Source: Naegleria gruberi
Lineage: Eukaryota
Assembly (NCBI GenBank): GCA_000004985.1
Contig: GG738845.1
Length of the DNA: 64,000 nucleotides
Direction: 5' to 3' (one strand)
The first letter of the stretch is position 1; every line of letters starts with the position of its first letter. Positions 5,981-57,947 of the stretch are shown here, one piece after another. The notes under the pieces were generated by a model. It was not told the DNA's origin and did no database searches. It saw nothing but the letters and a program-made list of their open reading frames with translations. The translations under genes and the position numbers were made by a program.

Positions 5981-6868
5981 TTAAAGCAAAGTGCATTTGC
6001 CTGGCTTCTTTTCTTGTGTCTTCTCTGTTGGAGGATACATACCATTATAGAGAGCTTCTTCGAAAACTTCTCTCACACCCTCATTCAACATGGCACTACA
6101 TTCCATAAATTTAACAGCTTTGATTGACTTGCAAATTTGGTTTGCTGCTTCAACAGAGACTGGTTCAACACCTTGATCCTTGAGTTTGGCCAACATGTTC
6201 TTGTCGTTTCTAATATCCGCCTTGGTTCCTACGAGAATGTAAGGACAATTTGGTCTGTGCTTTTTAACTTCTGGAACCCATTTATTCTTTACGTTTTCCA
6301 AAGAAGTTGGACTGTCGATGGAGAAACACAACAAGAATACATTAGCGTCAGGGTAGGAGAGTGGTCTATTAAGCTTTGATAAGGGAATTATTTTTCAAAA
6401 TATGATCACTTACCGAAGATTATCGTAGCTAATATTGTTAATCAATATAATTTTACACTTGAATTCACTTACTCTGTGAGGAATTAATATTAAGGTTCAT
6501 TATTATTTGTTATAATAGGAAAACTTGTTAACTTCAATATTTACCTTCCTACAAAAAGGTTCTTGCATTACATTTACGTTCGTACTTACTTGTCCAGCAG
6601 TATCCATCAATAAAAACTTGATGGTTTGATTGTTGAGTTCAATTTCTGATGAATAGTTATCGAAAATTCTAATAAGGAGAACGTTTTAAACATGTGGTTA
6701 TTGTAAATACATACGTTGGGATATACTTTTCAGGGAATACACCTTCAGCAAAGACGTGCAAGAGACATGTTTTACCCTGATAATAGATTTAAGGATTTTA
6801 AAATTATGCTCAGTACATACCACAGCACCATCTCCAACAACAACGAGACGAACAGTTTGACTTTCCAT
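5981..6868 (-). CDS. RHO1: RhoA/Rho1-type small GTPase with at least 4 introns. Exons 6821..6868, 6715..6776, 6590..6668, a probable 15-nt exon 6414..6428, and 5981..6365. The Switch-II segment is not cleanly resolved.
   Basis: Exon 1 MESQTVRLVVVGDGAV (P-loop start). Exon 2 GKTCLLHVFAEGVFPEKYIPT. Exon 3 IFDNYSSEIELNNQTIKFLLMDTAGQ. Last exon PLSYPDANVFLLCFSIDSPTSLENVKNKWVPEVKKHRPNCPYILVGTKADIRND...CSAMLNEGVREVFEEA...KKPGKCTLL (CAAX). Introns GTATGT...CAG (44 nt), GTATGT...TAG (46 nt), GTAAGT...TAG (48 nt). The last exon closely resembles RhoA/Rho1 (CFSIDSPDSLENI...PNVPIILVGNKKDLRND). Confidence 0.7.
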
Positions 6869-7172
6869 TTTTTTAATTAATAAATAAAAATCTAAAAATA
6901 AGGAAACAAAGGCAGCCTTAATATCAACGGAAAAGTTCAAGGAAGCGAAATTATTATTGTAAATTGTCCACAAATATATCACTATAAAACAATCAAAATA
7001 ATATCTCATAATACGATTTACGCTATCAATTTATTTAATGCTTCCAAATTCTTATTGAGTCAATGAAGTCTATTCAATTATGAAAAATAATCCTTCGTTT
7101 GTCCTATTCATTTTAAAAATGCTGAATGACTGACAGAAATCAAAACCTAATGTTAAATTTGAATTGAAATAT

Positions 7173-7922: not shown

Positions 7923-8012
7923 AAAAAATGATGAAGGCGTTAGTAGGTTTTATTTTGAATGGTTTGATTTATTGTTTGAACCAATTTTTAATAGGGGCTT
8001 AAAGATATTCTT

Positions 8013-11000
8013 ATGAATTCTATAATGAAAGATTCATTTAGAACATTTTGTAAGCAAGTGTTATCCTGTGAAGAATTAATAGATTTGTGGACAGATATTC
8101 AAAACTACAGGAACATCAAAGACAATGAAGTGGAATTAAGAGTGAATACAGCAAAAAAGATATGGAACACCTACTTTGTTGCTGGTTCTATTGAAGTTCC
8201 GGAAGAGTTGCACTCAATTTTAGTGGATAATATGGATTCGGGCAGTATTGCTTTATACGATGAAGTGCAAACGTTGATAGAGGATGATCTTAAAGAAGAG
8301 GCCTACCATCTATTTATCAAAGATTTTATCAAACACGCAAATTCTTCATCTAACAATCCACTCTCCTCCCTTAATACTATTAGCAATGCACCTTCATCAA
8401 GTGATGATACAATTTCAAAAATCTTTCAACCAATCCATGAGATTTCTAACAGAAGAAGAAACAGCTTCCAAGAACAAACACCAACCAAATTGACCTTTCC
8501 AGTACCAAACACCAGCATTCCCACTGTTCCCCTTACTCCAATCTTGCACACAGTAATACCTCTCAATAATGATAGTAAGGTGTCATCACCACCACGCCTA
8601 CCACCTGCTCACACACCGCCACCATCAAATTCTGTTAAGAGGGGCGTTAGAATTGAGAGGCTTGGTGATAAAATTCAAGTGTATGGAAGATCTCCAACAA
8701 ATTTAACAAAACCAGGTGAGAATGCAGCCTCAAGTTTGGAAGAGTACAAATATAAAGGTCCTCTAATTCCTCCAAATCAGGAAATTAGAGCTACAGTTGC
8801 AGATATCGACTCATCATTCCTGAGGTCAAAAGGAGAAAAGGAACAATTCACACAGGTTACATGTTGTGAAGTCTCTGTTAATCTTCTATATCAAAAGATA
8901 CCAATAATCACACAAGGAAGCATTGAAGGAATGGCAGAAATGGCAAAGAAGTTATACAATTTAAAGGATTACCTTCAAACAGATGACGACTCATTTGTTA
9001 TGGATATTAATTCTATTCTAAATAGATGTGATCGTTACTCTGCTCACCTTCAAGTTGAGAATGTAGAGTCTATCAACAATTACGGTATTATTCAAATGTT
9101 TAAATCATCAGAAAAGAAGCCAATTTGCTGCATTCTAAAGGCACAAGTGATTGAGGAAGAGTCAAATAGTTTTAATGATTATTTGGTGGTATTTTATGAT
9201 GGAAATGAAAGTTATTGTCTATTCCACACATTTCAAAAACTCTTTCCAAAAAAAGGGTTGAGGGCTTGTGTTACCTATTTTGAAAATCTGGAAGTTATGG
9301 AAAGATTTTTAAATGATTTCCTTGCTCCTAATGAAATGAGCGCTTCAAAATTATCAAGCAATAAGAAATATATTTTAAAACAATTAATAACTTTGAGAAA
9401 GAAGGAGCATGGGTTGATCAAGAAATATTTAAATTATAGAGTTTCTCTTCAAGTTGAAGATTCTCCTATTGACAATATCGAGAAAAAATTATTCATCATG
9501 GAGGATATGCATAGAAATAGAATTGAAGATCTTTTAAACAAGTTGAAAGATATTGAGGGAAAAATTAAAAGTGGAAAACAGAAATTAGTTAATCCCAAGT
9601 CAGTAGAAGAAAGAGGGATAGAAAATTCAACTTTTGATCAAGATCTTACGGATGTAATGGTGAGACTGGAAGAGATTGATGAAAGGCAGCTGTCCCCAAG
9701 AAAAAGACAAACTCAAGAACAAAAAAACAAAACAGTTTCAGAAACTCTAAGTCAAACGACTTCTCCACAAAAGAGTGATATCATAACAGAGTATTTCATT
9801 AATAGACTTACCAGTATTGAATCTGAAATGAATGAAGTGAAGAATGCATATACCAAAAAGATGGAGAGCGTTGTAGAAAATCTTTCTAATTATGAGAAAC
9901 AAAACCATCCGGTTATGGAAAAAACAATAACCCAACATGAGAATTCAGATGCTAAATTAATTTATGAAATGAAAAAAGAGATTGAAATTATGAAAATGGC
10001 TAGGCTTCAAATTGAAAAGGATGTAAAAAACAAAGCATTTCACCAAAGTACCAACAATAGTGATTTGAATAAGATTATAGCCAACTCAACCTTTAACACT
10101 GAACCTTTATCTGAACCTTTAGAATCAAATTTACAACTACCAGAGGAAAAGGAGACAGAACCGCAGCTTATTTCCAATTATGAAAATTCTCCAGAACAAA
10201 TGATTATTCATCAATCACAAGTAATTGCACAAGAAACTAACACCAATCCTCAATCCGAATCAAAACTTGAATATGTATCAAGAGTGATAGAGGATTTGAA
10301 AACTGAATTGGCGAGTCTTAGGGATGAAATGAGTATCATTTCTAAAAGGAAATATGCTCATGAGGTATTGGGTACTATTTTTGAAAAGTCCAATAACGAC
10401 CAAGAAACCTTCAAGTTACCCCAACCTTCAGCTGATACTCAAATAGATGAGGTTGTTGAAAGAATCAATAATATTGAAAGTTATACTTACGAAAACATGT
10501 CAAACGTAAAACAATCACTTTATGAAGAGAAGAAGGACCGTTTTAACATGTTTGATGCTCTTCACACCAAAATTCAGTCCGTTGAAGAAAGTAATAAGGA
10601 ACATGCAAAGGAAACTAAAGAAATCAGCGACAAAGTTGATCAAATTAAGTCAGAAATTGATATGCTAAGATTTACATCATCTTTGCAAGCAAGAAACTCA
10701 GACACATCCTCAATAGTCTCTAAACTTGACGATTCTTTAGATGTCAGTTCAAATGCTTCCTCTCCAACAAAGTCTTTAGACTCTAATCAATTTATGTTCA
10801 TTCAGAATAATTTGAAGAAGGAAATAATACAACAAGTCAATCAACAAGTTAATCAACAAATTCATCAACAAATCAATAATATACCAAATGTTGAAAATTT
10901 GTTTCGTGAGTATAGGAAACAGTTTGATAATTTTGAAAGCAAAATTGAGAATAGATTCAATACTCAAACCTTTGTTAATGGTAATCAGGAAGAAATCGAA

Positions 11001-12380
11001 ACCCTTGATAGAAGGGTCTCTATTTTGGAAAATGATCTAAAGGAGCAATTGGAAAAAACAGTAGACTCTAAAATTGAGCAGTTTAATTTTATGAATAAGA
11101 ACCTCAATCAAATTGTCAATGTCAAAGTTGAATCCCTTGAAGAAAAGTGGGAGCATTTGAAAGAATTTATTCACATGAAAACAAGGGAAATGGAACTTAG
11201 TGCAATGAATATAGTTCCTCCAAACAACAATTTTATATCTGAAGGAGAGGAACCAACAACTCACTTTGAAAATGAAGTAATTCAAAACTTTATCTCCCAA
11301 CTTTCAAATATTCAACATACCCAATCAAATTATGATGAAAAACTCGACCTAATTTCCAAGCTCTATGACTCAAGTTGGACAAAAACAATTGAACTTTCAG
11401 AGAGCGTGAAGGATATTACAGATGTTAAAAATAATGTGGAATATCTCAAGCAAAACACAGACAATAGGGTTGGCCAATTACAGTCATCGGTAAAAAGAAT
11501 TGATAATCAAATTGAGTATTTATCAAGAAGACTACAACAAGTTGATCAGCAAAAGGATGAACAACATATTGAAAAGATGACTCTGTTCATCAATAGTCTC
11601 TCTTCAAGAGTGGATCAAGAATTGAGAAAGATGAACGAGTATTTCCAGAGAAAAGAAATACAACTTAACGACAAAGTTTTGGAGATTTTAACGAGAGAAA
11701 GAATGTTGAATATGAGAGAACAAAATCTTGAGGAGAGAGAGGACCATTTTATCAAACATACCAATGGCCACTCTGTCAGTGTTGCAAAAAGCGACAAGGC
11801 TGATGATAACCTTCTTCTTAAACAAGTTCAACACCACCTCAATGCCCCTAAAGTTGATTATTCCTTAGAATCAGTTCTTTACCCACTCTCATCAGTTGAT
11901 CCAGAAGTTTTGAAAACTCAACGTATTACTGATCCTTCGGAAAGAATTGCCAATGAGTTCAAAGATTCATTCTTGCTAAAAACTCCAGAATCTCTTTTCT
12001 CTTCCACAAGTTTTGCTTTACCAAGCTATTCTTTGAGTCAACCTTCAGCTAGTAATTCAAATTTTTTTTCTATTTTGAGCCCAAATGATACTGCATCATC
12101 TGTGCACTCAAATTCTACATCACCAACCAGTTCAACAACCTCAGCGTACCATCCTTTGTTGGTTACATCTTCTGGAATGCAAACTTTTGATGAGGATATG
12201 TTAAAGACCACAAACAATAGTGCTCCATCTACACCAATTGAAAGAAGTCGTAGAAGTTCTGGAAGTCAAACATACAAAACCCAGTTCAAAGAATACAAGA
12301 AAGAAGACAACTCTATTATAAGATCACCATTTAGAAAGTATGCAGAGCAAAAAGATACTCACAGCAGTTATTTTTTCTAA
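8013..12380 (+). CDS. Giant (1455 aa) protein with an N-terminal RGS-like domain followed by more than 1000 aa of predicted coiled coil and a Ser/Thr-rich tail; no intron seen
   Basis: The N-terminus FRTFCKQVLSCEELIDLWTDIQNYRNI...RVNTAKKIWNTYFVAGSIEVPEE...AYHLFIKDFIKH fits the RGS pattern F..F...E.S.EN..FW......Y....A..I...Y. The rest is heptad-rich E/K/L/Q sequence. ATG at 8013, TAA at 12378. Confidence 0.8.
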   Translation: MNSIMKDSFRTFCKQVLSCEELIDLWTDIQNYRNIKDNEVELRVNTAKKIWNTYFVAGSIEVPEELHSILVDNMDSGSIALYDEVQTLIEDDLKEEAYHLFIKDFIKHANSSSNNPLSSLNTISNAPSSSDDTISKIFQPIHEISNRRRNSFQEQTPTKLTFPVPNTSIPTVPLTPILHTVIPLNNDSKVSSPPRLPPAHTPPPSNSVKRGVRIERLGDKIQVYGRSPTNLTKPGENAASSLEEYKYKGPLIPPNQEIRATVADIDSSFLRSKGEKEQFTQVTCCEVSVNLLYQKIPIITQGSIEGMAEMAKKLYNLKDYLQTDDDSFVMDINSILNRCDRYSAHLQVENVESINNYGIIQMFKSSEKKPICCILKAQVIEEESNSFNDYLVVFYDGNESYCLFHTFQKLFPKKGLRACVTYFENLEVMERFLNDFLAPNEMSASKLSSNKKYILKQLITLRKKEHGLIKKYLNYRVSLQVEDSPIDNIEKKLFIMEDMHRNRIEDLLNKLKDIEGKIKSGKQKLVNPKSVEERGIENSTFDQDLTDVMVRLEEIDERQLSPRKRQTQEQKNKTVSETLSQTTSPQKSDIITEYFINRLTSIESEMNEVKNAYTKKMESVVENLSNYEKQNHPVMEKTITQHENSDAKLIYEMKKEIEIMKMARLQIEKDVKNKAFHQSTNNSDLNKIIANSTFNTEPLSEPLESNLQLPEEKETEPQLISNYENSPEQMIIHQSQVIAQETNTNPQSESKLEYVSRVIEDLKTELASLRDEMSIISKRKYAHEVLGTIFEKSNNDQETFKLPQPSADTQIDEVVERINNIESYTYENMSNVKQSLYEEKKDRFNMFDALHTKIQSVEESNKEHAKETKEISDKVDQIKSEIDMLRFTSSLQARNSDTSSIVSKLDDSLDVSSNASSPTKSLDSNQFMFIQNNLKKEIIQQVNQQVNQQIHQQINNIPNVENLFREYRKQFDNFESKIENRFNTQTFVNGNQEEIETLDRRVSILENDLKEQLEKTVDSKIEQFNFMNKNLNQIVNVKVESLEEKWEHLKEFIHMKTREMELSAMNIVPPNNNFISEGEEPTTHFENEVIQNFISQLSNIQHTQSNYDEKLDLISKLYDSSWTKTIELSESVKDITDVKNNVEYLKQNTDNRVGQLQSSVKRIDNQIEYLSRRLQQVDQQKDEQHIEKMTLFINSLSSRVDQELRKMNEYFQRKEIQLNDKVLEILTRERMLNMREQNLEEREDHFIKHTNGHSVSVAKSDKADDNLLLKQVQHHLNAPKVDYSLESVLYPLSSVDPEVLKTQRITDPSERIANEFKDSFLLKTPESLFSSTSFALPSYSLSQPSASNSNFFSILSPNDTASSVHSNSTSPTSSTTSAYHPLLVTSSGMQTFDEDMLKTTNNSAPSTPIERSRRSSGSQTYKTQFKEYKKEDNSIIRSPFRKYAEQKDTHSSYFF
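10830..10877 (+). repeat. In-frame 12-nt tandem repeat x4 (CAACAAGTCAAT-like) encoding QQVN-QQVN-QQIH-QQIN inside the RGS/coiled-coil gene
   Basis: Four consecutive near-identical 12-mers read directly from the sequence. Confidence 0.6.
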
Positions 12381-25056: not shown

Positions 25057-25575
25057 TTTTTAAACTCAATTTAAATAAAGGCATTATGATTAATTACAAG
25101 ACCTGTGGAATATTGAGTTTGGCAAAAATTTAATTTGTATTTGTCGATCGTTTCTTATGGTTAACTTTGTCCAAACTTTGGGATTGTAACTTGTAGGCGT
25201 GACAAAGACTACCTAAACTGTTGGAATCTCCCACTCTACACACTGTTGAAATCAAATGTGGTTTGGAATGTTACTTTATTTGTTTTTTCCTCTTATTTGT
25301 AATAAGTTCAAAAAATCAATTTTGCAAACTCAATAATCACAACATTTGCAAAGTATCAAAAAAAATTCACTGGCAATTTTTCCTATTACGGCCTCATCAC
25401 CTAAGTAACGATCACGTCAATTATTTTTTTATTTTTAATTTAAAATCAAAAAAAATTCTCTAGCAACGCTTGACGTTATTTCAAACAACACCAACTTTTA
25501 GGTCTTCCTCTTGGCATTTGGATAAACTTATTGAGAGGATTAAAAATCGGAATTACAATCTATTTATCTTATAGA

Positions 25576-28500
25576 ATGGATCTTTTACTTCACCTGAATG
25601 CCTATCATACACTGAAAGGCCAAACACAAAATGCGGAAACAGAATCTGCTCTTACCAAAAGACAATTGGAAAGAACAGAAAGAAAGGCTAGGAATGATCA
25701 TTTGGAGTTGGTAAAACAAAAGAAAGGTCTTCAAAATTATATGGAAGAGTTACAAACTAAATATCGATTATTGCAGGAAAAGATTGCAACTCAACAACTG
25801 GAACATAAAGAATTACAATTAGCTTTGGAAAACAAAATTAATAACCTTACCCAAGAATTTCAAGGCAAGGAAGTGCAAATGAATCAAATCATTAAACAAA
25901 AACATCAAGATATTGAAAATTTACAAAGAATGATCAAAACAGAAGAAGAACAGCACAACCAAAAGAAACAACAGCTCGAAAATGAAATATCACAATTAGA
26001 AAATCATGTATCCAATTTGGAAACTACTATTGAAAGTTTGAATAGTAGTCTTTCTGCCTCTCAACACAATTATGAAGATTTAAAGAAATATTCCGAAAAT
26101 CAAATCGAATTGTTAGATCAGGAAAAGAGTCGAATTATTGCTGATATTGAAGAGTTGCAAACTTCCTTCAATAACGAAAGGCAACAACTACTTAGGGAAT
26201 TATCACAGACAGAGCTTCAACTCTCCCAATCGCAACAGGAATATATGGTACTAAGTGAGGAGCGAAATCAACTTATTTCCCAATCTCATACAATTGCTCA
26301 CCTATTAGATGAAGCCAACTCACAAAATTCTACGTTGGCTTCTGACATTTCAAGTGTTAGAAACGAACTTGAACTTGTTACACAAGAAAAGCTTGAATTA
26401 GTTCAAAAACTTTCGGATTCAGAGAAGGTTCAAACAACCTTGAACTCTCAGTTGAATGATTTGAAGAATCAATATGTAGAACTCCAAAAGAAAATTGCTT
26501 CCAAAGAATCAGAATTACAAAAGGCCGAAAATACCCTTTCTGATGTAAGAGAAACACTCTTAAGAAGAGAAAGCGAGATACAGAAAGAAGAAAACGAGTT
26601 GAGAAACAAGGAAAAGGTCTTGAGAGAGGAAATTTCTTCAATGGATGAGAAAATCAATGCTCTCCAAAACCAGATAGATCAAAAAGAAATTGAAAAAACA
26701 AGTTTGAAAGAAAAGTTAGAAAGTGAAATTTCTTCCATCAAGTCACAATTGAATGAAAAAGAACAAGCCATTTCAAAATTAGAAACAGAAAAAGAGCAAT
26801 TATTATCTCAAATGAAGCAGGCAATTGACGACCTAAACATTAAAATTTCCGATCAAGCTGTGCAAATACATCACCAAAAAGAAGAGTATGAAACTATGAA
26901 GGATAATTTTGAGCATTCCACCACAGAGCTAAAAAATACCATATTTCTAAGGGAAGAGGATCTTAGAAAAAGTAATGATTTGAATCAAATAATTGTTGAA
27001 CAATTACAATCTTCAATCCAAAACCTTACCCAAACTGTTTCTCAAAAAGAGATGGATCTTTCAAAGCAAAAAGTGGAGCATGAAAGCACCACTAGTAAGT
27101 TAGAAAAGGAGCTTGAGGATATCAAATTAGCATTAACAAAGAAGGAGAGCGAGCTCTCAAGAAAAGAACAAGAAAATGCCCAACAAATTAGCGAGCTCAA
27201 CAAGAATCTAGATCTTATGAGAAATATTTTGAACAAAAAAGAAGAAGGTCTTCATGAGAAGGAAGAAGAAAACTCATCCTATATCCAAGGTCTTAACAAG
27301 ATTATAGATGATCTTAGAAATACTATTTCCAACAAGGATATAGAATTGAAGAGATTGGAGTCTGAGCATTTAAATGAAATTGATTCTTTAAAGCAAACCA
27401 TTTCTCAATTTCAAAATCAAATCAAATTGTCCAAGGAAACAGATATTGAAAAGGAGGAATTAATTAATCAATTAAGAGTAGAAATCTCCAAGCTATACTC
27501 TGAGAAGGAAAATCTTGCAAACAAGGAAGACTTGAAAACCAAGAAGGAGGAAAACTCATTGAAAGAAAAGCTTGACGAAGCCAACAGAAATGTATCTAGA
27601 ATACAAACACTTTTTGAAAAGGAGCGAGAAGATAAGGTTAAAATTAATAACGAAAAAACCAAACTTGAAAACGACGCCAAGAAGGCCATTTCGTTATTGA
27701 ACAGTCTCAACAATAACCAAAATCAAAGTCTCAACCTTAAGGTTACACAGCAAATGACAGCCTACGAAGAAAAGTTACAAGAACTCTCAAAAACAATTTA
27801 TTCTCTTCAAAATAACTACAAGAATAATCTTAACAAGTTGACCCAAGATAAGATTAAACTAGAAACTGATTTGAAGAAGGCTCTCTCCACAGCCCAAAAT
27901 ACCATTCCAACTCATGAAATTCCTTCTGTGCATATTCACAATCCTATTGGTACTCCTATTTCAAGAAATTCCATTAATGAGATTCCAAGCACAGAAACAC
28001 CAACTAACAAGCAAATATCCACTCCTGTTACTCCTCAAACCAACACAAACGTGTCCACGCCAACATCTGTTGCTACACCACCAGTTGCACTCTCACCAGC
28101 TCTTCAATTCCTTTTGCGAATGAAACAAGAAGGATTTAAGCTTGAAGATCAACCATACTATGCTGAATTAATGGAGTCAATGAAAGGTAAATCAGTTATG
28201 GCACTCTTTAGAAGAGCCCAACAAGCAATCCCTGGTGATTTGGACTCTAAACAATTATACTACTTTACTGAAAAGGCTGTATCCAAATGGATAAGTACAA
28301 TCTGCAAGGAGGATTACAATTCTACTTTGACTTTTTATGATAACTTGAGAGATGGTATTTTATTGTGTAAAATTGTAAATAGTAATATTTTCCCTGAATT
28401 CTACTCCGGTGCTGGTGGCTCACAAGTGTGTAACTCTAAAACTCCAATTAACAAGTCGGTAGAATTAGAGAACGTTAATCAATACCTCAAGTTTTGTGGT

Positions 28501-28995
28501 ATTTTGAATGTGAAACCAATATTTACCTATGACCAACTTTGTAAGACAACAACAAGTGCTCCTGAAAAACAAATAATTCTGCAAAACCTCTGCATGCTCT
28601 TTGAATTGAGTATGGTATGCCAACAAAACAAGAAGAGAAAGTTTGAATTTATGGAAATTTTAAAGAAAAACCTCTCCAACAACCAACAAGCTCCAAACAC
28701 TACACCATCTAGGACATCATTAGGTTCAACACCAACCAATAATAGTACACCTTCCTTAGTTCCAAACCCATCAACACCACAAATTTCAGAGCAAGACATT
28801 ACCGATGATAAGAGAAAGGCAAGATTTAGCTTGAGCCCTGGCTCATTTACTGGTATCAAAGACGGCCTCAAAGATGCATTGTTTAAGGGACTGAATAAGA
28901 AGGTACTTCAAGGTAAGGATGTAAAACCACTAATGGACGATGAAGAACCAAATTCCCAACAAAAATCTGCATCAGCAGATGACTACTTTAATTAA
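25576..28995 (+). CDS. Large (1140 aa) coiled-coil protein with a C-terminal calponin-homology (CH) domain, a cytospin/SPECC1-like architecture
   Basis: More than 800 aa of heptad repeats (LQ..L..K...LE...). A Pro/Thr-rich linker follows, then ...FTEKAVSKWISTICKEDYNSTLTFYDNLRDGILLCKIVN...QYLKFCGILNVKPIFTYDQLCK, matching the CH-domain pattern (KWiN...i.dl..dl.DG..L..L). First ATG is at 25576; the track start at 25531 is TTG. The acceptor-like cttatag just before the ATG hints at a 5' UTR intron. Confidence 0.75.
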   Translation: MDLLLHLNAYHTLKGQTQNAETESALTKRQLERTERKARNDHLELVKQKKGLQNYMEELQTKYRLLQEKIATQQLEHKELQLALENKINNLTQEFQGKEVQMNQIIKQKHQDIENLQRMIKTEEEQHNQKKQQLENEISQLENHVSNLETTIESLNSSLSASQHNYEDLKKYSENQIELLDQEKSRIIADIEELQTSFNNERQQLLRELSQTELQLSQSQQEYMVLSEERNQLISQSHTIAHLLDEANSQNSTLASDISSVRNELELVTQEKLELVQKLSDSEKVQTTLNSQLNDLKNQYVELQKKIASKESELQKAENTLSDVRETLLRRESEIQKEENELRNKEKVLREEISSMDEKINALQNQIDQKEIEKTSLKEKLESEISSIKSQLNEKEQAISKLETEKEQLLSQMKQAIDDLNIKISDQAVQIHHQKEEYETMKDNFEHSTTELKNTIFLREEDLRKSNDLNQIIVEQLQSSIQNLTQTVSQKEMDLSKQKVEHESTTSKLEKELEDIKLALTKKESELSRKEQENAQQISELNKNLDLMRNILNKKEEGLHEKEEENSSYIQGLNKIIDDLRNTISNKDIELKRLESEHLNEIDSLKQTISQFQNQIKLSKETDIEKEELINQLRVEISKLYSEKENLANKEDLKTKKEENSLKEKLDEANRNVSRIQTLFEKEREDKVKINNEKTKLENDAKKAISLLNSLNNNQNQSLNLKVTQQMTAYEEKLQELSKTIYSLQNNYKNNLNKLTQDKIKLETDLKKALSTAQNTIPTHEIPSVHIHNPIGTPISRNSINEIPSTETPTNKQISTPVTPQTNTNVSTPTSVATPPVALSPALQFLLRMKQEGFKLEDQPYYAELMESMKGKSVMALFRRAQQAIPGDLDSKQLYYFTEKAVSKWISTICKEDYNSTLTFYDNLRDGILLCKIVNSNIFPEFYSGAGGSQVCNSKTPINKSVELENVNQYLKFCGILNVKPIFTYDQLCKTTTSAPEKQIILQNLCMLFELSMVCQQNKKRKFEFMEILKKNLSNNQQAPNTTPSRTSLGSTPTNNSTPSLVPNPSTPQISEQDITDDKRKARFSLSPGSFTGIKDGLKDALFKGLNKKVLQGKDVKPLMDDEEPNSQQKSASADDYFN

Positions 28996-34460: not shown

Positions 34461-34579
34461 CTTTTTTTTTTAAGTTCTTGTCGTTAAACATCTCTGCTGT
34501 TGTACGTTTTTACTTCTGCAGGTTTGTGTAACGGTTTTTGCCGCTCTTTTTGTTTTTGTGGATATCAAATTCAAAAAAA

Positions 34580-37254
34580 ATGTCAAAACGAAAGGCACAC
34601 CTCTTGGAAGCACTCAACCAAAATAATACTAAAGCAAACAATCCTTTTGGATCAATGCCATTTTCAATTAATGGAATGAATACAAGTTTTTTAGGACCAG
34701 TTACACCCATCGGAAATGTGCAATCATCCACAACACACAATGAAGATTCTTCATCTCGTAATAATTTCGTTATTCCAATGATACAGAATAACAAGCGATT
34801 AAAAACAAATAGTACACAAAATAGATTGGCAGGTAAATCTTTTTATCAGGTACAAGAGGAAATGGAAAAGGAACACCAAAAAGAAATCCAAGAGAGGGAA
34901 GAATTAGAAAAGGAAAACAAAACATGGTGTGAAAAATTAGAAAAGAAGGAGGCTCACAAGCCAGCATTCAAATCAGAGCCAAATTTTGTAAAACTAAACA
35001 TGAAGAGGAAGGGTTTCAAATCAAAAAAACGATTTAAACCCTCTGGAGCAAGATTTTCTAACAATTTATCAAAAAAGAATTTTAACAAACTGAACAATAC
35101 TGAAGAAGACCAATCATTAGATCAAGAAATTACAAATGATACTTATTCTGATATTGAAGAGAAGGAATCTACAAACTTCGATGACACCATTTCACTTAAG
35201 TATTCAATGGACGAAATTATTCGATCCAAGGAAAAAGCTGAAGAAATTCTACAAGAGTTCTTCTCTCATGAATCATTTAGACCAGGTCAATTCGAAACAA
35301 TTTCAAGAATTATGAACAACCAATCATCATTGCTTATTTCAGGAACTGGAAGTGGAAAATCTACTTGTTATCAATTTCCTGCGCTCTGCATGACATTAGG
35401 TAAATTAGAATTTGCTATTGTTGTTTCTCCTCTCATATCCTTAATGGAAGATCAGCTGAAAAATCTTATTCCGACCCTACCAGGTTCTATACTTACCAAT
35501 AATCAGTCCAGTCAACAAAAATCTAAAATTATTAATGATATTAGAAAGGGGATCACCAAGATATTATTTATATCACCTGAAAGATTATGCGACCCAAAAT
35601 TTATTGAACAATTAAGGCAACTTCCTAAAATTTCATTTGCATGCATCGATGGTAAGTATTATATTAATAATAGCATGTTTAATAAGGCGTCTAAAAAGAG
35701 GCTCACTGTATGTCTGAATGGTCTCACAACTTTAGACCTTCATATTTAAGCATTAAAAATGTATTGGGGAAGGATTTGGGAGTGACCACTATATTAGCAA
35801 TGACAGGTACTGCTACAAGACACACAGAAGAATCTATTTGTGAATATCTTCATATTGAAAAGGATGGTATTTATAGACAGACTTTAGCGAGACACAACCT
35901 GATAAAGACCATTTCTTTGGGAATTCCAAGCAAGTTTACAGCCGTACTAAACCTTCTAAATAGTGAAAGAATGAGGAATTGCAAAGAGTCCATAATTATT
36001 TATGCAATGCAAAGACGAGATGCAGAGCAGTTATGTAGCCACTTAATTATGAATGGTATTCATGCAATTCCATACCATGCAGGTCTCGACACTTCCAAAA
36101 GAAAAGAAATCCAAAACAAATTTGTAAAAAAGGAAATTAACATTATTGTTGCTACAGTAGCCTTTGGAATGGGAATCAATATTTCAAACGTTCAGGCTGT
36201 CATTCATTTCAATTTACCAAAATCTATAGAAAGTTATATTCAAGAGATTGGTAGAGCTGGTAGAGACGGGTCTCAAGCCCAATGTCACATGCTGTTGGAT
36301 GATGATGACTACCTGTTGATAAGATCATTGTGTTACAGTAACTATGTAGATGTCTTTACTGTGAAAAAACTAATTCAAAAGGTATTTAAAGACAATGAAA
36401 TTGGAACTGTTATTGCAATGGGAATTAAGCAGTTGGAAAAACATTTAGATTTGAAAGAGGAAGTCATCTCAACAATATTAACCCTTTTACAAAGCAAAGG
36501 CTATGTAAAAGTCTTGCCTCAAATGAACCACATATTCACCATTTATTTTATGAAAAGTACACCAGTAGAACTTTCTAAAAAGCATGCATGGATTAAGATT
36601 GCTCTCCAAAATTCCAAATCTACAAAGTTTGAAATTGACATCTCCAAACTCTCAAAAGAAGCCTCCATAACTCTCTCACAATTAGAGATGGAAATTATAG
36701 GATTGAAGGAAATTGGAGAAATCAAATATGAATCAAAATCTGAAGCCTTTTGTTTAGAAGTTGTAAAAGATGTCGATGATATTATTCAAGTGTCTACAAT
36801 AATAACAGAGGAAATGAAATCATTAGAAAAAATCAATGTACACAAATCCAAAGCAATGTATAAACTTGCCAGAGAATTCATTATTTCAGATGAAGAATCT
36901 CAAAAATCTCAACCAAAAAGAAAAACAGGGATGGACGAACTAATAGATAGTTATTTCACAAGCGAAAAGGAAGAGGATTTTCTATCAAGTGAAAATGATA
37001 TTGCAAAAACAGAATTGAAAGGAAATGACAGGATTACAATTCAAGCTGATTGTTTTGTATTATTGAGAAAGTATGAATCAATTCCTAATGCAAAGGTACT
37101 AGCAAAAATACTTACTGGTCTTTCAACTCCAAATTTTAATGTTGAATTTTGGAAGAGTTGTGGAATGTGGGGTAGATATAGAAATGTGGATTTTTATTCT
37201 TTATTAGAAGTTGCCACTGATGTTTTTACCAGACATAAAGTAGAAAACTTGTGA
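34580..37254 (+). CDS. RecQ-family ATP-dependent DNA helicase (875 aa). Two exons 34580..35651 and 35699..37254, with a 47-nt GTAAGT...AAAAAG intron (phase 1) splitting the DEAH box.
   Basis: SFRPGQFETISRIMNNQSSLLISGTGSGKSTCYQFPAL (motifs 0 and I). FACID followed by EAHCMSEWSHNFRPSY regenerates the DEAH box and the downstream aromatic-rich loop only after splicing. Later motifs are LAMTGTAT, IIYAMQRRDAEQL, ATVAFGMGINISNVQAVIHFNLPKSIESYIQEIGRAGRDG. The canonical 4-Cys zinc subdomain is not obvious. Confidence 0.85.
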
Positions 37255-44112: not shown

Positions 44113-47100
44113 TTATTGATTGGAGTGTGAAAGGACAACTTGTTCAAAGAAAGACTTAACTCCCGCAATATTTTCCTCCAAACTCTTAACTTTAGCATTA
44201 CATTCATCTTGAATTTCCTTCTCTCTGATTTTCATCTTTTCCTTTTCTTTTTCAAGTTGAATTACTTTTTGCTTCTCTTTGTTCAATGTTATACGAAGAT
44301 TTTGACTTTCTGCTTGACTCTTCTCCAAATCATTTCCCAAATCCTCATATGATTTAATCTTTAGTTGTGCAATGTGGAGGGAATTTTGCAGAGATTTAAT
44401 TTGTTCCTCATAATTTGAATTGTCATTTTGCTTTGTCAATTTGTTTTGAGATATTAGGAGGTCGTTATGTGTCTTCAATTTGATAAGTTCATTTGAAAAT
44501 TTAACGAATTCAGATTCAAATCTCTTCATCTCTGATTCATATTTTGAAACTAGGAAGGTGTTTTGTTTTTCTAATTGGAGAACGTCCAGACTTTTTTCTT
44601 CTACTTGTCTGGTCAAATCTACTATTAAATCATTGTACTTTTTGTTTTGTTCGTTTTGCTCATCCTGGGTCTTTTTGACTGATTCATTACTTGAGTGCAC
44701 GTATTGTAAGTTGGATTGGAGTTGGTCATGCAACGCCTTTATGGTTTCTTCATTGGACTCTATTCTCTGGAGCAAGGATAGTTTCATTGATTCCTTGTCG
44801 TTTTGAACTGAAACAAGTTGATATCTGGCTTGTGCTAAATTACTTTCTAGAGAGATCTTTTCCTCCCTTATCTTTTGTATTTGATTTGCACAACCAGTCA
44901 ATTCACAAACTAGACCTTCTATTTCTTTTTCCATATCAGTAATCTTTGATTCAAGTCTCTCGTTGTGAAGTCTCAGCTCTTCTTTAAACGAGGAGTCAAT
45001 CACTGGTAATTTTGTGCCTTTTCTTCTTAATTCCAACTCAGTTTCCAAAGTTGAAATGATTGAGTCTTTTTCTTGTAGTTTGATTTGATATACTCGTTTG
45101 TCATTTTCTATTTTCTCTTCCTGCTTTTGAGTGATTGATTCTATTAAAACAATATGAGATTTGATGTCTTGCAATTTGTTGGTCCACATTTCTTCAACTC
45201 TTTTAGCTTCTGATTTCAAATAATCTCTTTCCTTTTGCAGTATTAAGAGTTGATTATTTAGAGATATGTTTTCTTCTGTTTGTTTTTTTAATTGTTGAGA
45301 CAGGGATTCGTGTGAATTAGACGAAGAACCTATTCTTTTTTTGGTGTCTTCTAAATCTTTGTTCAGGTGCTGAACTACCTTTGTGTAGTTTTTAATATCA
45401 TCCTCGAATTTTTGTCGTTCTCTGTTCTTTTCTTCGACAAGTTTTGCATTCGAACATTTTTGATCTTCAAGTTGAGAGAGTATGTTATGGTTTCTCTCTG
45501 CAAGATCTCTCATTTCTGCTCTTAAGGAAGACTCGATTTTTTCCATGTAAGCTAGATGGGATTTCTCTTTGCTAAGTTCTCTTGAGGCCCTCAATAATTC
45601 TGTTTTGGCACTTTCTGATTCTTCGCCGAGGTGAATTAATTGTTTTTCACTTGTAATTTTCACCCTGTGTAGATCCTCTCTTAATTGTTTTTCTGCTTGC
45701 TGCCTTTCTTCTATTTCAATATCCTTTTTTCTAACAATTTCTTTCAATGACTCTATCTTCTGCATAAACAATAAATTTTTTTCGTTCAGTTGCTCAATCT
45801 CTTTTTGCATTACTTGCTTCAATGATTCAGAGTCTACTGAAATCAACTCCATTTCACTACAAATTTCATTAAAATACTTTTGAATTTCTTCAAAGTTTGA
45901 ACTTATGGACTTGAAATCATCGTTAATTTTAAGGGAAGAAACAATCTTTTCTTTTAGAACTTGTTTTACAAGTTTTTCTTGTTTCTCAAATTTTTCATTT
46001 GAGTTTTTAAGATTGGATATTTTCTTGGTATACGATTGGTATCTATCATCATATTTGGATTTCAATTCCAATATTTCGTTCTCATATCTTTGTTTCAAGG
46101 AGGTAATGTCAGATTCGTAGTTGCTCTTCTCCAAAGAATTAGTCTTCTCCCGAGTATCAAGTAAACTCTGCAAGTTTTCATTAGCTACCTTTACAATTTT
46201 ATATTCCTCCTCCAGAATTGAATGTTTTTTTGAAATATTTTCTTTTCCCTCTTCAAGATCTGTTAAGCTCTTTTCATGTTCGCGAATGGTATGTTGTAAA
46301 TTTTTAAAAAGTTCCTCATAAACTGTCTGGAGAGACTCTTTTTGAGAAGTAAGATTAATAATATCTTCTTTAAGGTGGGTGCTTGTTAATTGTTCCTTCT
46401 TTATATCACTTTCCAAAGCAATATTCACCATTTCATTTCGAATTATCTTCCCCTCTAATTCACTAATTATTTTCGTTGATTCTTTTAATTGTTCCTGAAG
46501 AGATTGTAGCTCTAATTTTTCAAATTCAAATTCTTGATTGAGTTGGAGATTTTTCAATTTCAAATCTTCTATTGTTTTGTACAAGGTTTCAAGTTGAATT
46601 TGATAGGCTCTGGACATTTTTTCCATTCTTTCTTTTATGAAACTGGTTTCTTCTATTTTAATATCTTTAGAATCATTTTCTAATTGTTTCTTCAAGGCTT
46701 CATTTTCAATAGTTTGATCTTCCAACAATTTCTTAAGAGTATATTCATTTTCTCTTGATTCTTTACTCATCTTTTGAATGTAGTTCAAATGTTCCTCATT
46801 TGCTTTTCAATGTTAGGCAAGGGCTCAAACAACTATTAAACTTACTCTTATCCATTTTTTCTTTCCACATCCTGCCAAAATCAATATTTTGAGTTTCAGA
46901 CGAATATTTTTGAGATTTCAATATTTCTTCATACTCTCTAACTCTCATTAAAAGTATTGCATTTTCTTGTTCTAATTTTTTTTTATCTTTCTCTAACTCT
47001 GACTGCTTGTTGTGGTGTTGTAAAAGTAGATTGGCCTCGTTTTTTCTAAAGTTATCCTCTGTTTTTTTGTTAGATTCCATAACGACCATATTCATTTTTT

Positions 47101-48319
47101 CAATTGTTTCTTGAAGAGATTTAATCTCTGTCTTCATTCTTTCAACTTGGATCTGATTTTTAGACTCATCCTGTAAAGCAGGAACAAGTAATTGTTGGAT
47201 TCTTATGTTTTCTGATTTTTCTTTTTCTAGATCTTCTTTTAACTTGTTAATTGTGGACTCGTATTTGTCTTTTTCCTCTTTCCCAGTTTGGTCCTCCTTT
47301 TCGTCACTTGAGCTTTTACTTTCAGAAAAAAGAAGAGCCTTGCGGAGTTCTTCATTTCTACTTAGCACTACCGATAGCTGGTGAAGGAGGTCTTCATTCT
47401 GCATAACTAAACTTTTCATTCTTTTTTGTGCTAAATCCTTTTCAGACAAATCCTCACCATACTGAATATGTTCAGAGGCATTTGATGAGCTGTCATCAAA
47501 ATCAGTTTGACAAAATGCAGTTAAATAGGTTGGCGAGTTTGAAATCAGCCTGGAGGGTGATCCTTCAGAGAAGGAGAGTAGGGATGGGCTTTCAAATGAA
47601 TTGTTTTCCTCTTCATTTCGATTTTCCTTCTTTGTTTGCCTTGTTTGATTTGAAATTGCCAGTGTTTTTAAAGGTAGTGAAAGAGGTGAAATAAGAGCCG
47701 TGTTTCCTAAGTCAGATTTTTGAGGCTCCAAATCTTGACCTGAGAGATGGGCTTTGATTGGTGTTGTATTGTCGAAATCCAAAACCCTGAAAGTATTACT
47801 TCTCTCGCTTACTGAACTGCCGATATATGGTGAATCATTATTCTTAACAGAGCTGTTTGGTGTTGTCATATTAGTATAACTTGTTGAGGGTGACCCTATT
47901 TCAGAAGAATTAGTGGAAAATGGATTTTGAAAATTTTGTGATGGAGATTCTGTAGCAAGCTCTTCAGTAGTTGGATTATTGGGGGTTGTTTCGGGATCAT
48001 TTGACTTTTGTGTTCTCTCAATACCTCGAGACTGTACAATCCTGTTCCAATCATCGATTATACTATCGAAATAGTTGTTTGTTTGATTATTAGCACCGTT
48101 TGTTTTATCTTTCTTAATTATCATTGTATCCTCCATAGTTGTTATTGTTCTATTCAAAACATTGGTGTATTGGCTGAGAAGTGTGTTATAGAAGGATGAT
48201 GACGATCCCGATTCTTGATAATGTCTCGTGGTTGTATTGTTTAATGTATTCTCCTCTCTTGTTTTTAGGATGTCTCCCTCATTTGCCGTTGGCCCTATTG
48301 CCGAGCTAGTTGGAATCAT
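44113..48319 (-). CDS. Giant coiled-coil protein (about 1387 aa). Two exons 46846..48319 and 44113..46802, joined across a 43-nt GTAAGT...TTGAAAAG intron.
   Basis: The upstream track ORF ends with an atypical TGA inside ...EKMDK-gtaagt. Splicing at the CTAAC-containing intron gives ...EKMDKTNEEHLNYIQKMSKES..., continuous with the 891-aa downstream ORF. The N-terminal 350 aa are Ser/Thr/Asn-rich low complexity; the rest is continuous heptad repeats. Confidence 0.7.
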
Positions 48320-55229: not shown

Positions 55230-57947
55230 ATGAGTTCAAACGGGACTGATTCATCATCAAATAATTCCCAAACTCCTTCCAAGAGTACCTCCCAGAAGGT
55301 ACTTCCAACTGTACCTTCTCCTTCCTCAGCTGGAAGTAGATCAAGAACAACAATTAGACCTTTACCAAGTAGCAGCGGAATGGGATCAAAAGGTTCTAAA
55401 GGCAGTTTGCCGCTTCTTCCAACACAAGATAATTTAGGAGCAAATACTCATCATCTTGTTAGTGTTAACAAGACACCACTCGATTATGATCAATTTTCCC
55501 AAGTCATGACCACAAGCCCAAGGTTTGTTTTATTATTAACAATGTGATTTAACTTGTTCAGTTTACTCTCTGCTCTTTATACTCAGAGATTGCTTTCAAC
55601 TTCAGAGTTGGACGAAATGGCCTTTGCACTCTATCAATTATCTTCATCTTTATCAACATCTTGCTTCATGAATAAGATTCTAATTGGAATTGAATTTGAA
55701 AGAAGTTCTTCCGATACCGGCAATGGAATGGTAATAATGAGAGGAAATACTGTTGCAACCAAAGTAATGGACAATGTTGTTAAAGCAGAAGCTGTAGATT
55801 ATTTGAAAAATATTCTTATTGAACCAATGAAGAAGATCATTCTCGATGAAGTTTTAGATTTGGAAATTGATCCAACAAAAGTAATTACAAGAATTGAATC
55901 TGAAATTGATCTCTCTTCTAAAGATATTGATCAACAACAGCCTGAAGTTGCAGAAAAAGCTGTTATTCAAAACTTAGAAAATTTATTGACTTATTGCCGA
56001 TACTTTTTGGATAGAATGTTATCACAAGAGGCTCTTGAATCTATGCCTTTCAATATGAGATATATTTGTAAAATTATTAACGAAATGTGTCGCGACAAGT
56101 ACAGAATGGAAAATTCTGAAACTATAATTGCAAGTTTTGTTTTCTTGAGATTATTCAATCCAACTATTGTCTATCCTGAATCGAGAGATATTTTCCCACC
56201 TGAAGTCAAGATTCATTCAAAACAAAGAAGAAATTTGGTTTTAATTTCTAAAGTGATTCAACAAATTGCCAATGGGTTTGAATTTGGAGCCAAAGAATCA
56301 TTTATGATTCCACTCAATCCTCTTATTAATGAATACATACAAAAGGCTAAAAAATTCTTGATCGAATGTTCAAACTTGGATAGTGACAAGATATTGGACG
56401 AATTGGAAAAGAGCGTGCCAGACAAAGTTAAAAACAAAATCATTTCTTCTGATGAAAAATTACTTCAACATGCTATGAACATTCAAATGTTAGTTAAAAC
56501 TCATGAAAAGTCTCTCACAGAAAAAACAAATACTTCTAAAGATTTGATTGGAGTATTAAATAGACTTCCTAAAATTGAAGAAGCTATCAAATCTGAATCA
56601 TCCATCCTCTCAAGAAATGATTCCATTAGTAGTAACACAACTACATCAACAACTAATGAGAAGAAATATCAAGATTCTGAAAAGTATTTGGAAATGCTGG
56701 AAAAAGCTAAACAAGAAGATGTTAGAGATTTAGAGGCTATGAATGTAATTTCATGCAGAACATGTGATACTGAGGGTAGACCTGTTATTATCTTTTCTGA
56801 AGAAAAAATCAAGAAGGAAGATTTGGAAAGAACATTGCTCTATATGATTTTAAAACTTGATAAGTTTGTGGAAAGAGATTATGTAATGATTTGGTGTGTC
56901 AGTAACTCTACCTCTCAATCTCGTCCTGGATTTTCATGGATGTTAAACGTTTACAAAACCATTACTAGAAAATATAAGAAGAATTTAAAGTCGCTTTATA
57001 TTGTTCATCCAACTATGATGATCAAGGTTATCATGAAATGCTTTTCACCATTTGTTAGTGAAAAGTTTTGGAAGAAACTTCATCTTGCTGATACTGTACA
57101 AGATATATTCAAAGATATCCCAGAACATATACTACCACTTCCTCCAACAGTCATTGCTTATGATTTGATGCAAAATAATATCAAAAGCAATCAACCTTCC
57201 CTTTTCTCTACATCTTTGGAAGAGTTAATTAAATCAAGAAAGGATTGTGCAAACTCCTTGGTACCATCACCAATTAAGAAATGTATGGACTTCTTGAAAG
57301 AGCATCATGCCAACACTAAAGGAATTTTCAGAATTAGTGGTAATCAAGCCACTGTCAACCAGCTCAAGATTTTGATTAACCATGGCTCTAATGTTGATTT
57401 GCACCATGTTGATTGCCATGTTTTGGCCAGTCTTATCAAACTTTTCTTCCGTGAACTTCCTGATCCACTTTTTATGTTCTCTATTTATGATGAATTAATT
57501 TCAGCAGTTAAAGGTATGTTTCAAGAATTATTTTATTTACGAATTATCTAAGAAAATGGAAACTCTGTTCCAGATGTAATTGAGACGGTCAAAAAAATTG
57601 TTCCTAAAATGCCACAATGCCATTTTGAGCTTGCTAAAGAGCTTTTTGCATTGCTCAACTACGTACAATCACTTAGTGAAGAAAATATGATGAATGCTCA
57701 TAATTTGGCAATTGTTTTGGGTCCAAATATCATTAGATCAAATAGTCCAAATCCATTATTAGCATTACAGGATAATGGTCCACTCACTTATATAACTGAA
57801 ATAATGATTGGCCACCACGAACAAATTTTCCAATCTGGAAATGCTACAAACGCAACAATTCAACGTGGATCAAGAAGACCTCAAGCTCTTATGGAAGGTG
57901 ATTTGGAAAAGCTCAAATCTCTTAATTTTGATGATAGTGATGAATAG
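55230..57947 (+). CDS. Sec14 (CRAL-TRIO)-RhoGAP domain protein, 872 aa. Exons 55230..55522, 55562..57512 and 57573..57947.
   Basis: Intron 1 is 55523..55561 (GTTTGT...TTCAG, 39 nt). Intron 2 is 57513..57572 (GTATGT...TTCCAG, 60 nt); an alternative in-frame acceptor lies 21 nt upstream at CTAAG. CRAL-TRIO region ...RDYVMIWCVSNSTSQSRPGFSWMLNVYKTITRKYKKNLKSLYIVHPTMMIKVIMKCFSPFVSEKFWKKL. RhoGAP region IFRISGNQATVNQLKILINHG...LIKLFFRELPDPLF...MPQCHFELAKELFALLNYV...NAHNLAIVLGPNIIR, including the Arg finger. Confidence 0.75.

Follow-up and report, generated by a model that had tools for sequence, protein, structure and literature searches.

A giant Naegleria protein joining an RGS domain to a predicted viral tegument-like deubiquitinase fold and a segmented coiled-coil rod

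The gene, its product and its relatives

The window analysed here, a 64,000-nucleotide stretch of Naegleria gruberi DNA (contig GG738845.1 of assembly GCA_000004985.1) with a G+C content of 33% throughout, carries on its plus strand, at 8013..12380, an open reading frame (ORF) for a protein of 1455 amino acids (aa; the end coordinate includes the stop codon). An earlier note on this DNA had described the product as a regulator of G-protein signalling (RGS) box followed by more than 1000 aa of coiled coil, nearly all of it heptad repeat, and by a Ser/Thr-rich tail. The ORF proved to be uninterrupted, as the note had it, with 1455 codons and no internal stop, and the tail is present as well. The architecture as described is, nevertheless, incomplete, in that a globular domain of ~225 aa between the RGS domain and the rod had been missed: rather than entering a coiled coil, the chain continues from the RGS box through a disordered linker into this conserved domain (aa 105-480 together), which is predicted to adopt the fold of the viral tegument-like deubiquitinases (VTDs). 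From the N- to the C-terminus, the encoded features are the following.

8022..8324, plus strand: RGS homology domain, aa 4-104 (match to Pfam PF00615)
8325..8624, plus strand: low-complexity linker rich in Ser, Thr, Pro and Asn, aa 105-204 (53% S+T+P+N; 13-28% orthologue identity)
8625..8708, plus strand: short motif VRIERLGDKIQVYGRSP, aa 205-232 (50-61% orthologue identity)
8775..9452, plus strand: predicted VTD/peptidase-C76-like papain-fold domain, aa 255-480 (AlphaFold2 model and Foldseek)
8862..8864, plus strand: Cys284 in the motif QVxCCEVSxNLLYQ, candidate equivalent of the VTD catalytic Cys (invariant in eight of eight family members)
9186..9236, plus strand: beta-hairpin VVFYDGNESYCLFHTFQ, aa 392-408, at the putative position of the VTD Asp-x-His motif (D396-G-N398 or H405-T-F407, depending on register)
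9453..11762, plus strand: segmented coiled-coil rod, aa 481-1250 (heptad score against shuffled sequences)
10440..10562, plus strand: conserved island within the rod, aa 810-850 (ERINNIESYTYENMSNVKQ...; 41-59% identity versus 13-27% for the whole rod)
11595..11762, plus strand: C-terminal block 1, aa 1195-1250 (DKVLEIL..., EREDHFIKHT), family-wide
11925..11990, plus strand: C-terminal block 2, aa 1305-1326 (DPSE...SFLLKTP), family-wide
11991..12308, plus strand: Ser/Thr-rich disordered tail, aa 1327-1432 (39% S+T)
12309..12347, plus strand: C-terminal motif IIRSPFRKYAE, aa 1433-1445 (62-77% orthologue identity)

A search of 5.8 billion proteins recovered three relatives of the window protein, namely P0001, a metagenome protein from ENA, P0002, which is N. 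lovaniensis C9374_010241 (named ‘RGS domain-containing protein’ in UniRef), and P0003, which is N. fowleri FDP41_010859, the orthologues being 1343-1655 aa long. Conservation is distributed very unevenly along the chain. The middle domain (aa 255-480) is the best-conserved part of the protein, with 65, 47 and 52% identity to the three orthologues, compared with 30, 32 and 25% for the RGS domain and 27, 13 and 15% for the rod; at the level of sequence, the conserved core is this middle domain, and neither the RGS domain nor the rod.

When a profile of the middle domain was run against 1.84 billion cluster representatives, only seven proteins were found, the three orthologues and four distant members, P0004-P0007, hypothetical metagenome proteins that matched with E-values of 5e-27 to 8e-12. 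BLAST maps not only the middle domain but also the C-terminal region to P0004, P0006 and P0007, and the distant members also have the coiled coil and recognizable versions of the conserved blocks (DKFLE.L, ER[ER]DHF[IL][KR]YSNKY, SFLLK[ST]P and SP[FL]RKYA). None of these four has an RGS domain; P0004 has a weak C2 match in its place, whereas in P0006 and P0007 the middle domain itself stands at the N-terminus. The RGS domain is thus confined to the four Naegleria-type members (the window protein and P0001-P0003) of an eight-member family. Since only these four carry it while all members share the remaining modules, the RGS domain is an addition at the N-terminus, specific to this lineage, of an older family whose modules are the VTD-like domain, the rod and the C-terminal motifs.

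A scan of metagenome contigs yielded no new members and found again only the contigs of P0006 and P0009. A convergent Frag1 (PF10277) gene comes next to the gene for P0006, downstream of it, and likewise to that for P0007 (L001 5476..5892 and L006 7952..8533), an adjacency that represents conserved micro-synteny between two uncultured eukaryotes with a GC content of ~38%.

The middle domain: predicted fold and active site

Sequence-based methods gave no indication of the nature of the middle domain: Pfam, run on all eight middle-domain sequences at E-values of up to 10, returned nothing relevant, and a profile search of PDB sequences with the eight-sequence alignment produced no VTD and no match. 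AlphaFold2 supplied with an alignment of four sequences gave an unusable model, with a predicted local distance difference test score (pLDDT) of 41. By contrast, modelling of aa 250-485 from a hand-collected alignment of eight sequences (the window protein and P0001-P0007) reached a pLDDT of 80.4 and a predicted template modelling score of 0.83, the five models lying at 78-80. The top five matches of this model in a Foldseek search of PDB were all VTDs (E-values of 5.6e-5 to 6e-3, probability 1.00), and the next match did not exceed a probability of 0.33. In BFVD, six of the seven top matches were named herpesvirus large tegument or C76 proteins and the seventh was unnamed, all with probabilities of at least 0.99. 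Because the searches of the two databases agree, aa 255-480 is predicted to have the fold of the VTDs (MEROPS family C76).

Two properties of the evidence weigh against this assignment, namely the low identity between the middle domain and its structural matches (7-13%) and the small number of sequences, only eight, on which the model rests. Taken together with the poor outcome from four sequences, they would fit a scenario in which the resemblance is an artefact of a model built from a shallow alignment and aa 255-480 represent a novel fold, to which we give a very slight chance. Membership of the YopT/AvrPphB/Mcf (C58-like) branch, with lipidated small GTPases, for example Rho, as substrates or ligands, is also very improbable; such a role would suit an RGS partner domain. 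Those proteins are bacterial effectors with a conventional Cys-His-Asp triad, whereas no conserved set of these residues with the usual spacing is evident in the middle domain; furthermore, they were not ranked highly by Foldseek, with which high probabilities were reached only by VTDs and herpesvirus tegument proteins, in PDB as well as in BFVD.

The VTD family includes herpesvirus UL36, M48 and BPLF1, the Helitron protein DrT1-VTD2 (8ADD), Waddlia Wc-VTD1 (8ADB/8ADC) and the insect iVTDs (Erven et al., 2022; PMC9741609). Its members are the nearest structures to the predicted fold, and the window domain would resemble them further if its invariant Cys, modelled within the first long helix, is the counterpart of their catalytic Cys; with the insect iVTDs, it shares an incomplete active-site motif. 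It differs from the family in the lack of sequence-level similarity detectable by our searches and in its placement, flanked by an RGS domain on one side and a coiled coil on the other. It is also distinct from a short, active VTD of N. fowleri, Nf-VTD (FDP41_009013).

Whether the fold retains an active site is a separate question. VTDs are defined by a Cys and an invariant Asp-x-His motif; insect iVTDs without the active-site residues are presumed inactive, and in M48 a second histidine, His141, partly replaces the base of the motif (PMC9741609). Within the family described here, all eight members have Gln281, Cys284, Cys339 and Cys372; seven of the eight keep His345, and seven have an acidic residue at position 349. 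In a realigned hhalign comparison with the ubiquitin-specific protease domain of HSV-1 UL36 (the sequence used being 100% identical to PDB 6cgr_n), Cys284 is paired with the catalytic Cys of UL36, at an E-value of 0.3 that is not significant alone. The Viterbi alignment, likewise with an E-value of 0.3, pairs VFYDGNESY with LFRDGDTAY of UL36 and thereby places the viral D-P-H on H405-T-F407. If the register is instead set by eye, the motif position falls on D396-G-N398 in the window protein and on D-G-H in N. lovaniensis and N. fowleri, the other members having D-G-N, D-A-K, D-G-L or no motif; across the eight members, position 398 is occupied by N, N, H, H, K, L, D and N. Whichever register is taken, the window protein has no complete Asp-x-His motif. 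Given that the hhalign alignments are short and non-significant and allow two registers for the motif, the equivalences with VTD active-site residues are not fixed.

Because Asp-x-His is broken in both registers and Cys284 lies in the middle of a modelled helix (22 residues according to DSSP, alignment positions 24-45) and not at its N-terminus, the VTD-like domain of the window protein would probably be a pseudo-deubiquitinase. Several observations tell against this view. The residue equivalences on which it depends derive from the two insignificant hhalign alignments; the D-G-H triplet of the N. lovaniensis and N. fowleri orthologues would permit activity in some species; and His345 could provide an alternative base, in the manner of the partial role of His141 in M48. 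The last two also underlie an alternative that we consider unlikely, in which the domain works as a cysteine protease or deubiquitinase and the protein would be a deubiquitinase linked to G proteins on a coiled-coil tether. Catalysis would then pair Cys284 with either His345 or His405 as a non-canonical base, or with the D-G-H triplet in the N. fowleri and N. lovaniensis orthologues. Such activity would be consistent with the strict conservation of Cys284 and Gln281, with the near-universal His345 and acidic residue 349, and with the tolerance of M48 for its second histidine; moreover, Nf-VTD, the other N. fowleri protein, is an active K6-directed deubiquitinase. The motif C..S.NLLYQ also looks similar to the Cys-boxes of other deubiquitinases. 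Against an active enzyme stand the broken motif, which is invariable in active VTDs (PMC9741609), the mid-helix location of Cys284, the fact that His345 alone among the candidate histidines is conserved family-wide, and the three invariant cysteines, which could be mere core residues. A pseudo-deubiquitinase thus remains our preferred interpretation of the domain in the window protein.

The RGS domain, the rod and the C-terminal motifs

The RGS box claimed by the earlier note was borne out when the N-terminus was scanned by itself: PF00615 matches aa 1-200 of the window protein with 51 bits (E-value of 2.2e-13; aa 4-104, profile positions 10-111 of 117), well above the gathering score of 23.9 bits. 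By contrast, hmmscan of the full-length protein reported no RGS match and missed the domain in the orthologues in the same way, so that a scan of this kind would falsely have argued against the N-terminal assignment. Whole-protein Pfam scans of P0001-P0007 likewise gave no relevant match, the RGS domain being revealed only by N-terminal fragments. Among the Naegleria-type members, the scores are 51 bits for the window protein, 51.2 for P0001 with its upstream extension, 29.3 for P0002 and 22.4 for P0003. A phmmer search of PDB sequences matched the RGS domains of axin and RGS4 (E-values of 2e-4 to 1e-3), the best match for aa 8-115 being axin (1.9e-4). More generally, long and compositionally biased proteins can conceal real domains from whole-protein scans, the window protein, P0002 and P0003 being cases in point.

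Asn128, Asn88 and Asp163 of RGS4 are critical contacts with G-alpha (PMC8252600). In comparisons of the four orthologues (the window protein and P0001-P0003) with RGS4, in which the numbering of the RGS4 sequence aligned by MAFFT matched the expected residues, the equivalent of Asn88 is Leu in all four, and that of Asn128 is Pro or Ser in the phmmer alignment and a gap in the MAFFT alignment. The equivalents of Asp163 are Glu, Gln, Asp and Asp, and those of Arg167 are Leu, Ala, Gly and Gly. The switch-contact residues typical of RGS proteins competent as GTPase-activating proteins (GAPs) of the R4 type are, in other words, not kept in the window RGS domain. Because the equivalents of Asn88 and Asn128 are absent, the domain most likely serves as a binding module, for activated G-alpha or for another partner, as in axin, and not as an efficient GAP. 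A caveat is that the Naegleria RGS domains are divergent and that loss of the R4-type contacts does not prove loss of GAP activity.

The RGS domain of axin is a protein-binding module. Like the window protein, axin (1DK8/1EMU) has an RGS domain at the N-terminus of a scaffold and does not conserve the R4-type contacts with G-alpha; the window protein differs in lacking a DIX domain as well as any region for binding beta-catenin or GSK3. In the RGS repertoire of N. fowleri, 28 seven-transmembrane RGS proteins and one RGS-RhoGEF are accompanied by 79 other proteins with an RGS domain (Bosch et al., 2022; PMC9283941), and a repertoire of this size makes a new RGS fusion in Naegleria unsurprising in itself. 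The window protein can be regarded as one of many RGS-domain proteins expanded in this lineage, but the characterized members are canonical GAPs on a seven-transmembrane or RhoGEF chassis (PMC9283941), whereas the chassis here consists of a VTD-like domain and a coiled coil, and the RGS domain is without the equivalents of Asn88 and Asn128.

The N-terminus of the RGS domain also bears on the description of the gene as intron-less. The main ORF is indeed continuous, but two putative features directly upstream leave that description uncertain.

7928-7942, plus strand: possible 5' mini-exon of 15 nucleotides (nt), encoding MMKAL (tentative)
7943-7994, plus strand: possible intron of 52 nt, GTAGGT...AATAG (tentative)

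The in-frame codons at 7995-8012 (GLKDIL) lie directly behind the TAG at 7992-7994 and adjoin the ATG at 8013. With GLKDIL and the putative exon added, the RGS match improves from 52.4 to 56.6 bits (+4.2) and reaches profile position 2, so that the mini-exon and intron, which we regard as possible though somewhat doubtful, would complete the domain N-terminally. Parallels are found in the introns of the neighbouring Rho gene (44-46 nt, GTATGT...YAG) and in the N. fowleri orthologue, with a first exon of 36 nt and an intron of 108 nt, both of which are consistent with the putative structure, as well as on the contig of P0001, where the N-terminus of the RGS domain is encoded upstream of the called Met without an in-frame ATG. 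It is this combination of a higher RGS score and of intron parallels in the Rho gene, N. fowleri and P0001 that makes the absence of introns uncertain.

Downstream of the RGS domain, the linker is conserved only in the motif VRIERLGDKIQVYGRSP, which is limited to the RGS-bearing members, kept in all four of them and modelled, with low confidence, as a beta-hairpin. The rod was evaluated with a heptad score based on hydrophobic occupancy of the a and d positions in 28-residue windows, the threshold being the 99th percentile of shuffled windows. Within aa 481-1250, 455 of 770 residues (59%) are heptad-compatible, compared with 6 +/- 5% (maximum 19%) in shuffled rods, and no residue passes in aa 1-480 or 1251-1455; in tropomyosin, used as a control, 100% of the residues pass. 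The score is ad hoc, and neither COILS nor MARCOIL, which counts against leaning on it too heavily. A long coiled coil is accordingly present, as the earlier note had held, but in the form of a segmented span of ~770 aa with 455 passing residues and not of more than 1000 aa made almost entirely of heptads. Approximately 10 coiled-coil segments are separated by low-complexity stretches containing Pro, with 18 Pro in the rod overall. An origin of the rod by tandem repetition was considered and rejected, there being no tandem DNA repeats of note.

Within the poorly conserved rod, the island at aa 810-850 matches P0002 in BLAST with an E-value of 8e-10. The C-terminal elements extend to the wider family. 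Block 1 could be aligned between the window protein and P0001 and, more strongly, among P0004, P0006 and P0007 (RRDHFLRYSNKY), and the C-terminal motif is family-wide in the form SP[FL]RKYA and present in P0004, P0006 and P0007. A profile search of PDB sequences with the C-terminal region of the family found nothing.

A possible tethering scaffold and its genomic surroundings

We consider it likely, on balance, that the window protein is a large multi-domain scaffold of a Naegleria-type heterolobosean, in which an RGS domain, a linker with a short motif, a VTD-like domain, a segmented rod of ~770 aa and a Ser/Thr-rich tail with family motifs follow one another from the N- to the C-terminus. 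In such a scaffold, the rod would dimerize the protein and act as a spacer, and the conserved C-terminal motifs would hold it to some structure or partner. Its VTD-like domain would most likely recognize ubiquitin, a ubiquitin-like modifier or some other ligand without catalysis, while the RGS domain would bind activated G-alpha or a different partner. The resulting dimeric tether would unite an input linked to G proteins and a recognition module of the ubiquitin type at one cellular site.

A different arrangement, in which an RGS box sits on a continuous coiled coil of more than 1000 aa and functions as a GAP on a cytoskeletal scaffold connected with the neighbouring Rho, GAP and coiled-coil genes, strikes us as improbable. 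The significant RGS match, the long heptad-rich region and the occurrence of a Rho GTPase and a GAP gene in the window are all in line with it. However, it leaves out the best-conserved domain (aa 255-480) and requires a longer coiled coil than the 455 heptad-compatible residues within 770 aa provide; the RGS domain, moreover, is less conserved, missing from the wider family and devoid of counterparts to Asn88 and Asn128. Most of the neighbours, for their part, are housekeeping genes without any relation to it, and the N. fowleri orthologue lies in a different neighbourhood.

The tethering scaffold invites comparison with the large tegument protein of herpesviruses. The layout of a C76/VTD-type domain near the N-terminus, a helical rod of great length and, at the C-terminus, a short and conserved anchor in the large tegument protein (UL36/pUL48/BPLF1) resembles that of the family described here, particularly in P0006 and P0007, with the VTD-like domain at the very N-terminus. 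The rods and C-termini are nonetheless unrelated in sequence, and the viral domain is catalytically active, whereas the window protein is a cellular protein of a protist with an added RGS domain. A bolder proposal, which we rate as distinctly improbable, is that this protist family with its tegument-like layout and, in Naegleria, its RGS domain forms a G-alpha-regulated deubiquitinase or ubiquitin-reader tether that would be catalytically competent at least in the D-G-H-bearing orthologues of N. fowleri and N. lovaniensis. If true, signalling through heterotrimeric G proteins would be physically and directly connected with the editing of ubiquitin chains, and the family could be related, as a cellular lineage, to the ancestor from which the viral tegument protein arose.

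Our literature searches turned up no account of a protein combining RGS, VTD and coiled-coil parts, an architecture that is also absent from the main text of PMC9741609, and ‘Naegleria’ had no match in the stored supplements of that article. The middle domain, as modelled, is real and previously unrecognized, although it does not amount to a new principle. Should the predicted fold hold, the VTD family would gain a branch that is invisible to sequence methods, tethered by a coiled coil, probably non-catalytic and found in few protists, and the large RGS repertoire of Naegleria would include a fusion to a module of the ubiquitin-system type. The orthologue in N. fowleri, a lethal human pathogen, keeps the D-G-H triplet. 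For annotation, the protein carries a lesson, in that its RGS domain was missed by a full-length scan and its defining domain was found only through structure prediction from an eight-sequence alignment.

Elsewhere in the window, a Rho-type GTPase gene and a Sec14-RhoGAP ORF were both found, as had been stated before; the suggested local over-representation of cytoskeletal and G-protein functions was not supported, most of the ~30 ORFs being unrelated housekeeping genes. The genes include those for SNAP, a Plus-3 protein, the Rho GTPase with its introns, Clf1/crooked-neck, GMPPB, DEAD-box helicases and UbiA, along with TPR proteins, ATG14, THO2, a TLDc protein, a RasGAP-Sec14-RhoGAP protein, a WD40 protein and a glycosyltransferase. 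A functional gene cluster was rejected in view of this ordinary eukaryotic mix and of the different, non-syntenic neighbourhood of the N. fowleri orthologue. The following neighbours were delineated.

~5981..6880, minus strand: Rho-family GTPase gene with at least three introns of 44-46 nt (GTATGT/GTAAGT...YAG) and a CAAX-like end, CTLL
25531..28992, plus strand: coiled-coil ORF of 1154 aa, the only Pfam match being CH with 24.9 bits, below the cut-off of 26
34538..35749 and 35710..37254, plus strand: overlapping DEAD and Helicase_C ORFs of one helicase gene, split by an intron or frameshift
55554..57548, plus strand: dual Ras/Rho GAP ORF of 665 aa, with RasGAP (119.9 bits), divergent CRAL/TRIO (Sec14; 95 bits) and RhoGAP (80.7 bits)

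The label Sec14-RhoGAP was correct with respect to both domains but overlooked the RasGAP domain, which together with Sec14 makes up a neurofibromin-like module; the RhoGAP match ends at the end of the ORF, and a further exon is probable. As for the giant coiled-coil proteins proposed in addition, the CH domain said to be C-terminal in the first is a weak match at aa 914-1005 and not at the extreme C-terminus, and the second, placed at 44113..48319, consists of two minus-strand ORFs without a Pfam match. In N. fowleri, the orthologue (VFQX01000007.1 8298..18285) is flanked by a Peptidase_C97 (PPPDE/DeSI) plus PUL gene and by a zf-RING gene, both components of the ubiquitin system and not seen in the window; their proximity may be a coincidence.

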